DNA from: Torpedo marmorata
Lineage: Eukaryota
Direction of reading: 5' to 3'
Assembly: GCA_977017645.1 (NCBI GenBank)
Contig: OZ360238.1
Coordinates: 63,178,001-63,242,000, forward strand
Length of the DNA stretch: 64,000 bases
Shown here: in pieces, positions 7,948 through 57,877 of the stretch
Numbering within the stretch: the stretch's first letter is position 1
Layout: every line of letters starts with the position of its first letter
The notes under the pieces: model-generated
Seen by the model: only the letters and a program-made list of their open reading frames with translations
Database searches by the model: none
What the model was told of the DNA's origin: nothing
Position numbers and translations under genes: made by a program

Positions 7948-10003
7948 TCAGATTTCAGGTTTATTATCAGAGTACATACATGACATCACATACAACCCTG
8001 AGATTCTTTTTCCCTGCGGGCGCGGCAGAATTACCAGTAATTGGTAGTGCAAAAATTAAACTGTACACAGCGTAAACATGTAAACAAATAAAATAACTGT
8101 AAACAGATAACGAATGTAAACAAACTAACTGTGCAATACAGAGAGAACAAAAGAAAATCAATAAAGTGCACAAGTAAGAGTCCTTAAATGAGTCTACTAG
8201 AATCCCTGAAAACGAGAAACAGTGCCTACTAGAATCCCTGAAAAGGCTGAGGACCCTATGATATCTGTCTCTGAGGGCGACGTCAGAACATCATTCAAGA
8301 GGGTGAACCCTCGCAAGGCGTCAGGCCCTGATGGCGTACCTGGCAGGGTACTGAAAATCTGCACCAACCAACTAGCCGGAGTGTTCACGGACATTTTCAA
8401 CTTCTCATTGCGGCAGTCAGAGGTTCCCACCTGCTTCAAAAGGGCATCAATCATCCCGGTACCCAAGAAGAGTAGTGTGGGCTGCCTCAACGACTACCGC
8501 CCAGTAGCACTAACTTCTACTGTGATGAAATGCTTTGAGAGGCTGGTCATGGCCAGAATTAACACATACCTTAGCAAAGATATGGACCCACTGCAATTCG
8601 CCTATCGTCACAATCGCTCCCCAGCAGATGCAATATCGCTGGCTCTCCACTCAGCTCTGGATCACCTCAAAAACAGCAATTCATACATATGGCTGCTCTT
8701 CATCGACTACAGCTCGGCCTTCAATACCATTATTATCTCATTGCTGGTCAAGAAGCTACAAACTCTAGGCCTCTGTACCCCACTCTGCAACTGGTTCCTT
8801 GACTTTCTCATCGGAAGACCACAGTCAGTACGAATTGGAAACAACATCTCCTCCTCACTGATTATCAACAAGGATGCGTGCTTAGTCCACTGCTCTACTC
8901 GTTATACACCCATAACTGTGTGGCCAGGCACAATTCCAATGCCATCTACAAGTTTGCCGATGACACCACAGTTGTCGGCAGAATCACAAACGGCAATGAG
9001 GAAGCGTACAGGAGGGAGATAGATCAGCTCGTTGAATGGTGTAATGGCAACAACCTTGAGCTTAACGTCAGCAAAACCAAGGAGATGATTGTGGACTTCA
9101 GGAGGAAGTCAGGGGAACACGACCCAGTCCTCATCGAGGGCTCAGTAGTGGAGAGGGTCAAGAACTTCAAATTCCTGGGTGTCAACATCTCCGAGGATCT
9201 GTCCTGGAGCATCCACGTTGATGCAATCACAAAGAAGGCTCGTCAGCGGCTATACTTTGTGAGGTGTCTGCGGAGATTCTGTATGTCACCGAAGACTCTC
9301 GTAAACTTCTACAGGTGTACCGTGGAGAGCATTCTGGCTGGTTGCATCACTGCCTGGTATGGAGGCGCCAACTCCCAGGACAAGAGTAAATTCCAGAGGG
9401 TTGTTAACTCGGCCTGTGACATCACAGGCACCAAACTTCACTCCATCGAGGACATCTACATGAGGCGGTGTCTTAAAAAAGCAGCCTCTATACTCAAAGA
9501 CCCCCACCACCCAGGCCATGCCCTCTTCACTCTGCTTCCATCGGGAACAAGGTACAGGAGCCTATAGACAAGCATTCAACGGCACAAGGACAGCTTCTTC
9601 CCCGCTGCCATCAGATTCCTGAATAATCAATGAACCAAAGACAATGCCTTACTTTTCGTGCACTATTGTTTATAATTTTTATAGTAATGTTGTAAGATGG
9701 TTAATATGAATATTAATTGCACTATGATGCTGCCGCAAAACACCGAATTTCATGACTTGTTCATGCCAATAAATTCTGATTCTGATTCTGAGTCTTTGAT
9801 TGAGTTTGTCATTGAGGAGTCTGATGGTGACGGGGTAGCAGCTGTTCCTGAACCTGGTGGTGCAAGTCTTGTGGCACCTACACCTCTTTCCTGATGGCAG
9901 CAGCGAGAACAGTGCGTGAGCTGGGTGGTGTGGGTCTTTGATGATTGCTGCTGCCCTCCGACGGCAGCGTTCCCTGTAGATGTACTCAATAGTGGGGAGA
10001 GTT
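7948..10003 (-). mobile_element. Rex-Babar-like LINE 3' end (host, split into 7948-8195 and 9796-10003)
   Basis: 9796-10003 on the minus strand reads ..IYRERCRRRAAAIIKDPHHPAHALFSLLPSGKR..; minus-strand tail ..GATAATAAACCTGAAATCTGA at ~7950-7970. Confidence 0.75.
8196..9788 (+). mobile_element. Rex-Babar-like LINE, 5'-truncated, RT ORF frameshifted by a small deletion near 8870
   Basis: ORFs 8222-9022 ([29 protein letters not shown]) and 8878-9567 (KFADDT, KDPHHPGHALF); tail AATAAA(TTCTGA)n; 7-bp TSD TGAGTCT at 8189-8195 and 9789-9795. Confidence 0.9.
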
Positions 10004-17158: not shown

Positions 17159-17231
17159 ATGTCGCGTCGGAAGCAGGCGAAGCCGCAACACATCAAGTCG
17201 GATCAGGATACAGTATTATCTGCAGAGAATG
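17159..17231 (+). CDS. SALL1: Spalt-like transcription factor 1, coding exon 1 (NuRD-binding N-terminal motif)
   Basis: Kozak-like ACCACC-ATG; MSRRKQAKPQHIKSD matches the SALL/FOG N-terminal motif; donor G|GTGAGT at 17231/17232, phase 1. Confidence 0.95.
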
Positions 17232-25228: not shown

Positions 25229-28200
25229 GAACTTCACGAAGAGGGCAAGAAGATCGAGTTACTAAGAATGGGGATGCTCATGTCTGTGGCCGATGTTGTG
25301 CTGAGTTCTTTGAACTGCCCGATTTCCTTCATCACAAAAAATGTTGCACTAAGAAACAATTGGTTTTGATTGTAAATGAAAATTCCACAGCTCCTTCAGA
25401 AACCTCTTCTCCACAATCTCCTGATAATCCTCTTGAAGAAGTAAATGACAAGACCGATAATGCAAGTCAAGTGGACTGCAATGACCTTGTAGAGCATAAA
25501 AAACTTGCCCAGGAAGAACCCATGGAGGTGGACACTTCCAGCATCACTAGCAACAGTAATGTTAGCAGTTCTAACAGTAATAACCATAGTAATACAAGCA
25601 GTAATTATCCCACAATGGGTACCTCAGCTGTCACAACACCTCTACCTCATATAGGTGATCTAACAGCTCTGGGAAATTTCTCAATGTTAAATAGTAATGT
25701 GATCATTGAAAATCTTCGAAGTACAAAAGTGGCAGTCGCCCAGTTCTCCCAGGAAACCAGATCTAACAGTTCATCAAATGGTAAAATTGCTGTTCCGGCA
25801 CTTATGGAGCAACTACTGGCTTTGCAACAACAACAGATCCATCAGTTACAGCTTATTGAACAAATCCGTCACCAGATAATCTTATTGGCTTCCCAAAATG
25901 CAGAAATTCCATCGGTCAACTCTTCTCAAGGTACTTTAGGAACTGCTGTTAATCCATTAACTACACTTAGTTCTCATCTATCTCAGCAACTTGCTGCTGC
26001 AGCTGGGCTAGCACAGAGCCTTGCCAGCCAATCTGCCAGCATAAATGGTGGAAAGCAACTTCATCTACCTCAGAGCAGCCCTGGAAGCACCATAGTTCAG
26101 CCTAGCAGTAGTTCTCCAAAAGTAAACACGTCCTCATCGCCTGGTACCATACAGCCCTCTGAAAGCGTGTCCACAAATGCCATCAGTGGTTCTCAGTTAA
26201 TCAGTCCTTCAGTATCGACAGTGTCCACACCAGCTCTTGGAATTAGCAGCTTACTAAGTCCTGCATCCAGTTTGTCCAGCTCACTGCTACCTCAAACCTC
26301 CACATCCACTTCTATGTTTTCCAACCCTCTCTCGAGCATTGAAACAACTTCAGGAAACCTTGGTTCATTGACAGCCCTGGCAAATCAGAGGAAAGGCAAG
26401 CCACCAAATGTGGTAGTATTTGAGACTAAAAGCAGCTCCGATGAAGCTTTCTTTAAACACAAGTGTAGGTTCTGTGCTAAAGTGTTTGGAAGTGACAGTG
26501 CCTTGCAGATTCATTTGCGTTCTCATACTGGTGAGCGGCCTTATAAATGCAACATTTGTGGTAACAGGTTCTCCACTAAAGGAAATTTGAAGGTTCACTT
26601 CCAGAGGCACAGAGAGAAATATCCCCACATTCATATGAATCCATATCCAGTTCCAGAACACTTAGACAATGTTCCAACAAATACAGGTATTCCATATGGA
26701 ATGTCTGTACCACCTGAAAAACCAATAACAAGTTGGCTGGATAGTAAGCCTGTATTACCTACACTGACCACGTCTGTGGGGCTGCCGCTCCCATCAACTA
26801 TATCAGGTTTGTCTGCTATCATGAAATCAGAGGAGTGTCAGTCCATCTCAGTTAATCAGACTTCTTGCAGTCCTCCTGGATCGGTTAAGAGTGATTTGGC
26901 AGCAACAGAGCCCTCCGTGAAAAATGCAAATGATTTGGATGAAGTGGAAGACAGTGCTTCACCTACCTCAAATGGTAAACGAGATGAAAACACACAATCT
27001 ACTAATTCTGTCACCAGCTTGGCTGTTCCTGTCAGCTCAAGTGCATCTGATTCGGGTCTAGGTAGTACTACTGCTTTTACAACGCCACTTATACCACTTA
27101 TGTCAGACCAGTTTAAGTCAAAGTTTCCATTTGGAGGTCTTTTAGATTCTTTACAGACATCTGAAACATCAAAACTGCAGCAGCTAGTCGAAAATATTGA
27201 CAGGAAAATGACTGACCCCAACCAGTGTGTCATTTGCCATCGAGTTCTTAGTTGCCACAGTGCACTAAAGATGCATTATCGTACACATACTGGTGAAAGG
27301 CCTTTCAAATGCAAAGTCTGCGGTCGTGCATTCACCACTAAGGGAAACCTAAAAACTCATTATGGTGTTCATCGTGCCATGCCACCACTGAGAGTTCAAC
27401 ATTCTTGTCCAATCTGCCAGAAGAAATTCACAAATGCTGTCGTATTGCAGCAGCACATTAGAATGCACATGGGAGGCCAGATTCCCAATACTCCTGTAGC
27501 TGACAACTATCCTGAATCTATGGAATCTGACACTGCTTCATTTGAAGACAAAAATTTTGATGATATAGATGACTACTCAGATGAGAATATGGAAGATTGT
27601 CCAGATAGTAGTGTCCCGGATACACCCAAATCTGCTGAGGTGTCTCAAGGCAGTTTATCTCCATCTCCATTGCCATCAGAAATGTCCAGTATTGCAGCTC
27701 TTGAAAATCAAATGAAAATGATTAATGCTGGTCTTATTGAGCAACTCCAAGCAAGCCTCAGGTCAGGTGAGAATGGGTCAGCTGATGGAGACCAAATGAC
27801 TAGTGACTCTTTTTCAATGATTGGGGATATAGAGAGCCAAAGCGTTGGAAGTCCCGCCATTTCAGAATCTACCTCTTCCATGCAGGCTCCCTCCCCAACT
27901 AACAGCAACACAGATAGTCGTAGGTCAAAGTCACCAGGCTGTGAAGAGAGACAGCACAGAACTTTACTATCAGATTTGTCTAATTCAGTGTCTCCAGCAA
28001 CTACCAATGGTGGTGCCTTGGACCTGACTTCCAGTAATGCAGAACGAGTAATTAAAGATGATACCTTCAACTTGCTGTTTCCCAATCGAGATCGTGGTAA
28101 GTTGAGGAATACATCTTGTGATATCTGTGGCAAAGCATTTGCTTGTCAGAGTGCCTTGGACATTCATTACAGAAGCCATACCAAAGAGCGTCCATATATT

Positions 28201-28644
28201 TGCACAGTATGCAATCGTGGTTTTTCCACTAAGGGTAATTTGAAGCAGCACATGTTGACACATCAGATGCGGGATCTTCCATCTCAACTGTTTGAACCCA
28301 ACAATTCTAATGTAGGTCCTAATCAGAGCTCTTCAAATGTGGCTGCCAACAGTTTGACATCCCTAATCAAAACTGAGGTTAATGGTTTCATGCATGGGTG
28401 TTCCCAGGACTGCAAAGATCCACCTGCTAGCCTTATTTCATCAGGGCCTCTGTCTGCATCTGCTATTTCGCCTGTCCTGCCAGCGCAGCAAAGAAGAACT
28501 CCAAAACAGCATTACTGCACAGCATGTGGGAAAACATTCTCCTCATCCAGCGCTCTCCAAATACATGAGAGAACACATACAGGAGAAAAACCATTTGCCT
28601 GTACTATATGTGGAAGAGCTTTTACCACCAAAGGCAATCTGAAG
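25229..28644 (+). CDS. SALL1: SALL1 coding exon 2 (C2HC finger, Q-rich region, zinc-finger clusters 1-3 and most of 4)
   Basis: Acceptor ttttctag|GA restores GGA with exon 1. [34 protein letters not shown], four SAL boxes F(S/T)TKGNLK, GGALDLT motif; donor AAG|GTATTT, phase 0. The N-terminal finger and four-cluster layout fit SALL1 better than SALL2/3/4. Confidence 0.96.
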
Positions 28645-30618: not shown

Positions 30619-31062
30619 GTTCATATGGGGACACATATGTGGAACAGTGCCCCTGCAAGACGAGGGAGGCGCCTTTCCGTGGATGGTCCAATGGCATTCC
30701 TAGGTGGCAATCCTATTAAATTCACCGAAATGCTTCAGAAGGATTTGGCTGTTAGGGCTCGGGATGGAGACCCTTCTTCATTTTGGAACCAGTATGCAGC
30801 AGCACTAACAAATGGCTTAGCAATGAAGACCAATGAGATTTCAGTGATTCAGAATGGTGGACTTCCCCCAAACCCTGCTAGTCTGGGCAACGGTGGCAGT
30901 TCACCCATCAGTGGTTTGACAGGAAACATGGAGAAGCTTCACAGTACTGATTCCGGTGCATCTCTAGCTGGTCTGGAGAAAATATCAGCCGCCGCTGAAA
31001 ATGGAACAAACCACAGATTCACCCATTTGGTGGAAGACAACAAAGAAATTCTATCGAGCTAA
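30619..31062 (+). CDS. SALL1: SALL1 coding exon 3 (completes the last zinc finger; C-terminus)
   Basis: Acceptor ttttacag|GTT; [47 protein letters not shown]. Total CDS 73+3416+444=3933 nt. Confidence 0.96.
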
Positions 31063-54935: not shown

Positions 54936-57877
54936 ATTTTTTTCTTTCTTTCTTTCTTTCTTCTTCTTTTCCAATCTTTTTATTGTGTTTAAGCACAAAA
55001 AAAACATAGTATATAGAATGCGAAGTTACAGATTATAAATCAAATGGATATACGTCCTAAACAAATAGTAATTGATACCCCACAGCTCTATAGTTCAGAT
55101 AATAAAAACAGTAGAAAAGATATATATCCTAAACTATCTAACTAATACAAAACGAAGTTAGGTTATCTAACCCCCAACCTAATAGAGAAAAAAGAAAATT
55201 AAAAATTAGTTGGGATGCCTTAGAACAATAAAATTCAGTAATAAACAAGAAAATGTTCCGTTACATAAATGAAAATAGTTAAAATGAAGGGAAAAACGAT
55301 AATAAAACATATCGTATTAAAGCAGGTTTAAGAATAATGAAAAAAATTCATAAATGGGCGCCACGTCCTATCAAACTTAATATCGGAATCAGTTATAGCA
55401 CATCTAATCTTTAAAAAAGATAAAGTTTGGCACATCCACTGGACATAAGTGGGCAGAATAGAATCTTTCCACCTAAGCAAAATAGATCTTCTAGCCATAA
55501 GCATCGTGAATGCAATAACATGGTGATCGGATGGTGACAGATGTATATCTTCCAAAAACACTCCAAATAGGGCCGTAATTGGATTCGTCTGTAAGTTAAC
55601 AGCTAAAATTGTAGATAAAGTATTGAAAATTTCTTTCCAATAAGGTTCCAATGCCGGGTAAAACCAAAATAAATGGGCTAATGATGCCACCCCATTCCTA
55701 CACCTGTCGCAACAAGGGTTGACATCTGGAAATATACGTGCCAGTTTATCTTTAGACGTGTGCCCTGTGTACAACCTTAAATTGGATGAGTGAGTGACGG
55801 GCACAGATTGAGGATGTGTTAACAAGTTTAAAAATCCTTTCCCACAAATCGTCAGGAATAGTTCATTGTAAATCCTGTTCCCATGCTCTTTTGATCTTAT
55901 CAATTGGAACCTGACGTAATTTCAATATAATATAAATGTGAGCAATTAAGCCCTTCTGGGAGGGATGCAAATTATATCCACAACATCTACCTCCTGATCG
56001 TGGGGAAAAGTTATTAATTGGGTATTCAAAAAATTCCTAATCTGCAAATACCTAAAAAATTGTGAATTTGGAAGATTAAATTTAGTAGATAGTTGCTCAA
56101 ACGACATGAGATAACCATCAACAAATAGATCTCGAAAGCAACCAATACCTTTCTCCTTCCAGTTGGAAAAGGCCTGATCAATCCAGGAAGGAGAAAAAAA
56201 ATAATTAAATGGTATAAAACTGGATAAAGACAAATTCTTCAATCCAAAAAATCTGCGAAATTGATACCATATACGTAAGGTATGTTTAACCACGGGGCTT
56301 TCTATCATCTTATTAACCTCGGTTAAAGAAAAAGGAAGTGCAGCTCCAAGCAACGATATTAAAGAGAATTTCTTAATTGATTTCAATTCCAAAGTTACCC
56401 TAGAGGGCCATCTAATTTATCAAAATATTGAATCCAAAAAGTAACATAGCAAATATTAATAGCCCAATAATAAAATCTAAAATTAGGCAAGGCTAACCCT
56501 CCATCCCTTAGTTTTTTGTAAGAAGATTTTATTCAATCTTGGGCTCTTACTTTGCCAGATATAAGATGAAATAATGGAATACAAAGAGTCAAAAAAAGTT
56601 TTAGGGATAAAAGTCGGGATTGTCTGAAAAGAATAAAGTAACTTGGGAAGAACATTCATTTTAATGGCATTAATTCGACCAACTAATGTCATAGAAAGAG
56701 GCGGCCATTTAGTCAGTGATCCTTTCACCTGGCTAATCAAGGGGATAAAAATTTCCTTAAATAGATTCTTGTGATTCTTCATAACTTTATCACCTAAGTA
56801 CATGAAAGAATTATTAACTACCTTAAACGGGATATTATCATAAATTGGCATGGAAGCATTAAAAGGGAATAGTTCACTCTTGTGAAGATTTAATTTATAG
56901 CCAGAAAAGGAACTAAACTGCAACAATAATGACAACACAGCAGGGACAAACTTCTCAGGATCAGAAATATATAGTAACAAATCATCAGCATACAAAGAGA
57001 CCTTATGAACCCTGCCCCCTCTCCGAATCCCTATGATGTCCTCTGAGTCCCGAAAGGCTATAGCCAATGGCTCCAAAGCTAAATCAAACGATAATGGATT
57101 CAGAGGGCACCCCTGTCTAGTACCATGGTATAACCTAAATGAAACGGACCGCTGATTATTAGAAAAGACAGAAGCCATGGGAGAATCATATATCAATTTA
57201 ATCCAGGAAACAAACCCCGGACCAAAGTTAAATCTTCTCAAATTTTCAAATAAATACTGCCATTCTACCCGATCAAAAGCCTTTTCCACGTCCAGGGAGA
57301 TTACACATTCTGTCGTTTTAGATCAGTGGTTTTCAAACTGCCCCCCTAAACTCACATTCCACCTTAAGCAATCTCTATGTCATAAGTTCTTTGTGATTAG
57401 TAAGGGATTGCTTTAGGTGGTATGTGAGTGGAAAGAAAAAGGTTTGAAAACCACTGTATTAATCGTACCTAATTGACTCGTTATGTGCACGGTTTCATAA
57501 CTCCAAAGGAAATGGGCCAATGACAATTTTTCTTAGGTAAAATATTTCAGTAACAATTGGGTCCAGAGCAGTGGTTCTCAACCTTCCCTTCCCACTCACA
57601 TACCACCTTAAGCAATCCCTTACCAATCACAGAGCACTTATGGCATAGGGATTGCTTAAGGTGGAATGTGAGTTTAGGGGGGCAGTTTGAAAACCACTGT
57701 TTTAGATAATGGTGAATAAATAATATTCAGTAAACGGCGAATATTAAAATGTGAGTAACGATTTTTAATAAAACATTGTCTGATCATTAGAGATGATTAA
57801 AGGTAAAAAAATTCCAATCTATTAGCTAACATTTTAGAAAGTATCGCATCAACAGTCAGTAACGAGATTGGCCTATA
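54936..57877 (-). mobile_element. 5'-truncated L1-clade LINE ORF2 (RT plus C-terminal Cys-rich domain), frameshifted
   Basis: EKAFDRVEW, GTRQGCPL, SLYADDLLLY, CDRC..AHLFW; minus-strand tail AATAAAAAGATTGG followed by GAAA repeats and an A-run at 54936-54985. Confidence 0.92.
57324..57699. mobile_element. Composite hAT MITE, copy 2, inserted in L1
   Basis: Same two-unit-plus-spacer structure as 47342-47717; 8-bp TSD TTTTAGAT at 57316-57323 and 57700-57707. Confidence 0.92.

Follow-up and report, generated by a model that had tools for sequence, protein, structure and literature searches.

A candidate exitron around zinc-finger cluster 3 of SALL1 in Torpedo marmorata, with splice sites at positions common to SALL3 and SALL4

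The SALL1 gene and its candidate exitron

The window, that is the whole stretch of 64,000 nucleotides analysed here (Torpedo marmorata, assembly GCA_977017645.1, contig OZ360238.1, positions 63,178,001 to 63,242,000), contains the SALL1 gene as three coding exons. Zinc-finger cluster 3 (ZFC3) is encoded in the second of these, in a stretch that has canonical GT...AG borders and lies wholly within the exon. The features are as follows, with a slash marking the cut.

17159..17231, plus strand: SALL1 coding exon 1, with ATG at 17159 and a GT donor after 17231
25229..28644, plus strand: SALL1 exon 2, 3416 nt, encoding ZFC1, ZFC2, ZFC3 and most of ZFC4
28094..28102, plus strand: internal phase-1 donor GTG/GTAAGT, with cleavage after 28096 and GTAAGT at 28097-28102
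28097..28315, plus strand: exitron candidate, 219 nt or 73 codons, stop-free and in frame
28117..28179, plus strand: first finger of ZFC3, C2H2
28201..28263, plus strand: second finger of ZFC3, C2H2 with Sal-box
28296..28317, plus strand: weak internal acceptor ending in TAG/GT, with AG at 28314-28315 and the cut at 28315^28316
30619..31062, plus strand: coding part of SALL1 exon 3, whose acceptor is a second possible partner for the internal donor

The four clusters, the three coding exons and the best named matches, which are SALL1 proteins of rays, all identify the gene as SALL1, and the identity to Mobula birostris sal-like protein 1a is 98% across query residues 880-1100. The same genome holds two further Sall genes, SALL3-like on contig C30 and SALL4-like on contig C49; the genome search gave at least three matches and no fourth Sall gene. 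The N-terminus encoded by coding exon 1 presumably has the NuRD-binding role that we take over from the literature on SALL1. Elsewhere in the window there are broken open reading frames at 8210-9567 and 55328-57322, which by their motifs resemble LINE reverse-transcriptase regions.

The G at 28096 occupies the first position of its codon and the internal AG is followed by GT, and a join of the two restores an in-frame glycine. Both fingers of ZFC3 are inside the 219-nt stretch, and the predicted protein of 1310 amino acids would be shortened to 1237 amino acids if it were skipped. The stretch is part of an open frame of 1159 amino acids and its length is a multiple of three, as in the EIx3 class of exitrons. 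An earlier note on this DNA had described the donor, the acceptor, their phase and coordinates and the length of 219 nt, all of which were correct on recheck, and translation confirmed its account of the rebuilt glycine, the removal of both fingers and the product of 1237 amino acids.

GTAAGT is unique within the 3416 nt of exon 2. Some GTAAGT arises in 43.6% of 5000 synonymous recodings of the exon (with its own codon usage), thus the donor by itself is unremarkable. The analytic chance of a site at the exact place in SALL1 is 6% for the donor alone and 25% for the acceptor codon alone. Both sites were found at these exact places in 1.6% of the recodings, and the analytic value is about 1.5%.

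The polypyrimidine tract of the internal acceptor is weak, as the earlier note had cautioned, with 10/18 pyrimidines and four purines in positions -3 to -12, compared with 12/18 and two in SALL3. The number of T in positions -3 to -20 is five, against 10 and nine at the two real acceptors of the gene. The donor matches the consensus. Other in-frame YAGs 3' of the donor (28207, 28444, 28483, 28522 and 28582) were considered and set aside, none being at the SALL3/SALL4 position.

Exon 2 also has a second donor-like site of the form GT[AG]AG[TA], CAG/GTGAGA at window positions 27764-27772, with its GT at 27767 and in phase 1. Joining 28096 to the exon 3 acceptor at 30619 is predicted to give a frameshifted product of 1013 amino acids without ZFC3 and ZFC4, and this transcript would likely escape decay because the stop falls within the last exon.

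Splice sites common to SALL1, SALL3 and SALL4

Both paralogs in the same genome have splice sites at the places that match those in SALL1.

G000:C30:62396383-62396598 (L011), minus strand: SALL3 exitron, 216 nt, around ZFC3
G000:C49:50567525-50580426 (L012-L014), minus strand: SALL4 intron, 12,902 nt, with both ends at the SALL1/SALL3 exitron positions

The borders in SALL3 are GTG/GTAAGTTG and ACTCTAG/GT, with the AG at the codon matching that of SALL1. The donor and the acceptor of SALL1 are thus found at codons, and in a phase, homologous to those of the SALL3-type ZFC3 exitron. A SALL3 sequence from a metagenome contig (L015) has an identical donor and the acceptor CTAG/GT. In SALL4 the matching donor place reads GCA/GTAAGTAT and a stop follows four codons later. 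The coding sequence resumes 12,902 nt downstream, after TTTTTAG/GT, at the point that in SALL1 and SALL3 comes directly after ZFC3. A tblastn search of this intron found no remnant of ZFC3 (best E 1.3), and a bird SALL4 protein (P0420) has the identical junction. The statement in the earlier note that mammalian SALL4 lacks the cluster is true of the SALL4 in this genome as well, and the absence of ZFC3 from SALL4 is also given in a figure legend of PMC8699250.

Site identity, phase and frame are common to the three paralogs. GTAAGT is invariant in the four sequences (SALL1, SALL3 and SALL4 of this genome and the SALL3 of L015) even though four-fold codons agree at only 70 of the 190 residues identical between SALL1 and SALL3 (37%), so the splice sites are common by descent. 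The sites of SALL1, SALL3 and SALL4 likely descend from one ancestral optional module.

Annotated skipping of ZFC3 across species

The use of the skip was classified from annotation models in every SALL1 (n=196) and SALL3 (n=215) protein retrieved by protein searches; the protein lists are the best 120 of 373 hits for SALL1 and the best 120 of 606 for SALL3, and one shark SALL1 cluster is represented by 15 of its 18 members. Among the matches listed, the exact skip of ZFC3 is annotated in 89 of 215 SALL3 proteins and in none of 196 SALL1 proteins, a contrast that is possibly inflated because rare junctions go unannotated and known skips are copied between species by homology, and in which species and annotation pipelines are not independent. 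The SALL3 proteins with the skip are from rays, skates, sharks, a chimaera, coelacanth, birds, reptiles, marsupials and elephant, which bears out the statement in the earlier note that SALL3 has an isoform spliced at the equivalent 'RG' positions; the annotated skip is at the R/C-G position. A short form is reportedly described in the original SALL3 and Xsal-1 papers. The donor is joined to the last exon in 11 further SALL3 proteins of the 215. When both genes were searched in the same way, using only the sequence 5' of ZFC3 as query, the skip was present in 36/120 SALL3 and 0/120 SALL1 proteins (best 120 each). In the cartilaginous fishes that could be paired for both genes it is annotated in 17/19 for SALL3 and 0/19 for SALL1, and it is absent from all 36 cartilaginous-fish SALL1 proteins, from 20 species. 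SALL1 therefore differs from a SALL3-type exitron in that the skip is not annotated across species. The stretch of exon 2 that precedes the fingers was also compared with four of 22 sequencing runs. Three gave no contigs and one gave three short records whose loose ends read as the SALL4 paralog, a result that is neutral as to the splice.

The ZFC3 motif is present in 189/196 SALL1 proteins. The donor residues of SALL1 are GKL in 20/20 cartilaginous fishes, as a comparison of residues and not of codons, and one predicted model, Callorhinchus SALL1 X2 (P0146), leaves the frame exactly at the donor, where RERG is followed by exon 3 read in the shifted frame. At the acceptor, all 79 full-length SALL3 proteins have LG, and the residues vary in cartilaginous-fish SALL1 (VG, IG, LA, LM or MG). 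An acceptor AG is permitted by the residues in 18 of the 20 species; it is impossible at that position in Mobula hypostoma (MG) and Rhinoraja longicauda (LM). Outside this group, salamander SALL1 has AKF at the donor, with the glycine lost, and the residues are GPK, GTL or GIF in three SALL1-like proteins of teleosts, so that the donor is lost or weakened. The coelacanth residues, S-K-Y, are compatible with A/GTAAGT as in SALL4, judged from residues only.

Three SALL1 models of Pleurodeles waltl, X3, X5 and X6 (P0153, P0156 and P0157), drop ZFC3 by other sites. The donor is a different one about 15 codons upstream, the acceptor is also different, and the ancestral donor glycine is lost in this lineage. 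The removal of ZFC3 in Pleurodeles is possibly convergent.

Human variant data in PMC9838217 place ZFC3 among the most constrained clusters of SALL1, and ZFC3 of SALL3 is undepleted there (VdVp 1.29). This is the pattern expected if SALL3 often drops ZFC3 and SALL1 does not.

Retention of ZFC3 in SALL1

The SALL1 feature is real and ancient, with an anatomy like that of the SALL3 exitron, and is a candidate exitron on the strength of its sequence; the annotated proteins, as an indirect test of active splicing, are negative. With moderate confidence, we regard the 219-nt stretch as descended from a single ZFC3 exitron of the ancestral gene and as now mostly retained in SALL1. An early jawed-vertebrate Sall gene could, on this model, splice ZFC3 either in or out. 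SALL3 would have kept the switch as an alternative splice, and in SALL4 the splice would have become constitutive, the coding content would have been lost and the intron would have grown to 12.9 kb. In SALL1 a strong donor would have been kept while the acceptor weakened, and the mRNA would then nearly always retain ZFC3. The SALL1 donor is probably still used now and then, with the weak internal AG (1237 amino acids) or exon 3 (the frameshifted 1013 amino acids) as its partner. SALL1 thus probably seldom uses the ZFC3 splice. A counterpoint to a mostly retained exitron is the codon chance of about 1.5% for both sites, which is more in keeping with use that is still under selection than with a mere relic. 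Since codon usage alone would rarely preserve the two sites together, and since the AG is permitted in 18 of 20 species, low-level or tissue-restricted use of the SALL1 splice may be selected.

A stronger claim is that rays and sharks have an active, regulated exitron in SALL1, which gives a substantial isoform of 1237 amino acids without ZFC3, as in SALL3. The perfect donor with an in-frame AG at the SALL3-equivalent codon, the low joint codon chance and the residues that allow AG in most cartilaginous fishes are consistent with such use, and the Pleurodeles models show that SALL1 without ZFC3 is annotated, although by way of other sites. It nevertheless seems unlikely, since the skip is missing from the 36 cartilaginous-fish SALL1 proteins while 17 of 19 of these species have it in SALL3, Mobula hypostoma, a close relative, cannot encode the AG, SALL3 has the richer pyrimidine tract, and human SALL1 ZFC3 is constrained in the variant data of PMC9838217. 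At the opposite extreme, the sites might never be used in SALL1 and persist only through conserved G-K-L and V/I-G residues in a slowly evolving lineage. The lack of any annotated SALL1 skip agrees with a dead relic of this kind, as do the lost or weakened donors of the salamander and the teleosts. It is quite improbable, however, in view of a GTAAGT that is intact although synonymous divergence between the paralogs has almost reached saturation, a donor that is used in the chimaera X2 model and coelacanth residues that still permit the SALL4-type donor.

The proposal of the earlier note that SALL1 still encodes an optional zinc-finger module holds in one respect when set against an inherited and mostly retained exitron. 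The ancestral sites are common to SALL3, where the skip is annotated, and to SALL4, where there is a real intron at both positions. A meaningful output of the form with 1237 amino acids is the part so far unsupported, with the skip in 0/196 SALL1 proteins and in 0/19 of the paired cartilaginous fishes.

The widest reading would have one exitron set the zinc-finger architecture of vertebrate Sall proteins, through a regulated ZFC3 switch in ray SALL1, an alternative splice in SALL3 and a permanent intron in SALL4 that explains its lack of ZFC3, with a 5' border that is maybe an old spalt intron position. As a whole it is unlikely to hold, being limited by its weakest step, which is active regulated use in SALL1. 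The SALL4 part alone, in which the exitron became a permanent intron and so left SALL4 without ZFC3, can be held with considerable confidence.

Origin of the ZFC3 borders

ZFC3 is kept in lamprey and hemichordate Sall proteins. All six lamprey proteins retain it and are without the G-K donor residues, an observation at the protein level that does not date the exitron. ZFC2, ZFC3 and ZFC4 are in one open frame without a donor-like site in 7 of 28 invertebrate ZFC3 contexts from metagenome contigs. The uninterrupted invertebrate frames and the ZFC3 of lamprey and hemichordates favour an order in which there was first coding sequence, then the exitron and then the SALL4 intron.

In 11 invertebrate spalt loci (L058, L059, L064, L065, L069, L072-L074, L076, L077 and L080) a probable phase-1 intron ends 17 or 20 nt before ZFC3, a place that coincides with the vertebrate donor or is one codon away, and the second finger is also interrupted in these loci. 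This position may be an old intron position or a separate gain.

ZFC3 could also have begun as a cassette exon with a true intron on either side. Loss of the exon would then have fused the introns in SALL4, whereas in SALL1 and SALL3 the introns would have gone and splice signals would have reappeared where they had been ('splicing memory'), a route proposed by Marquez et al. 2015 (PMC4484396). The 12 distinct invertebrate spalt contexts in which only a short open frame precedes ZFC3 agree with this, as a YAG ends 17 nt (9/12) or 20 nt (2/12) before the first Cys codon, all in phase 1, and the vertebrate donor is at -20 in the same phase. This origin is very improbable, an estimate that bears on history only, given the seven uninterrupted invertebrate contexts, the failure to find a matching intron at the 3' border, and upstream introns that are deduced only from stops and YAG and may have been gained separately.

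Comparison with known systems

A literature search, apart from subscription papers of earlier years and the PMC4484396 exitron tables, where SALL genes may be listed, found no SALL1 ZFC3 skip, no SALL4 intron described as a former exitron and no paper combining 'exitron' and 'SALL3'. There was nothing on a ZFC3 splice in the parts consulted of PMC7895904, PMC8876671 and PMC12752504. In the part of PMC5892016 that covers the cluster, chick and mouse Sall3 are listed without it and alternative splicing in the region is mentioned, and the word 'intron' is absent.

The system most similar to the SALL1 candidate is the SALL3 isoform without ZFC3 (RefSeq models XP_059828598.1 of Hypanus sabinus and XP_025002796.2 of Gallus gallus), which is like SALL1 in the donor, the phase, the AG codon, the rebuilt glycine and the removal of the whole cluster. 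The SALL3 exitron has 72 codons instead of 73, its acceptor is more pyrimidine-rich with invariant residues, and its skip is widely annotated, whereas the skip is absent from all SALL1 proteins among the matches listed. The SALL4 intron, which separates the large exon from the one encoding ZFC4, has both its ends at the positions of the SALL1 sites and in their phase. Unlike the SALL1 stretch it is constitutive, 12,902 nt long and without a ZFC3 remnant, and it has stops, so it is not an exitron today. The splice that separates SALL4A from SALL4B is also internal to exon 2 and also alters the set of zinc-finger clusters, but according to the isoform descriptions in PMC8876671 and PMC9838217 it takes out ZFC1 and ZFC2, whereas the SALL1 candidate takes ZFC3.

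The gain for SALL1 itself is modest unless real use is seen in junction reads, and the interest is mainly in the series of three paralogs within one genome. The series offers a mechanism for a well-known and unexplained difference between SALL proteins, in that SALL4 probably lost ZFC3 by an optional splice that turned permanent and not by deletion. It would also explain why human ZFC3 tolerates variants in SALL3 and not in SALL1, and it provides a clear example, open to testing, of coding sequence that becomes an intron, in which the sister genes show the intermediate states.

The EIx3 exitrons described in sections of Marquez et al. 2015 (PMC4484396) are, like the SALL1 stretch, stop-free, a multiple of three in length, bordered by GT-AG and situated in a long coding exon at domain borders, and exitrons that remove C2H2 fingers are among those described there. 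They are defined by junction reads, whereas the SALL1 candidate is described here from its sequence. A further difference is that in one of the Sall paralogs the exitron seems to have gone all the way to a full intron.
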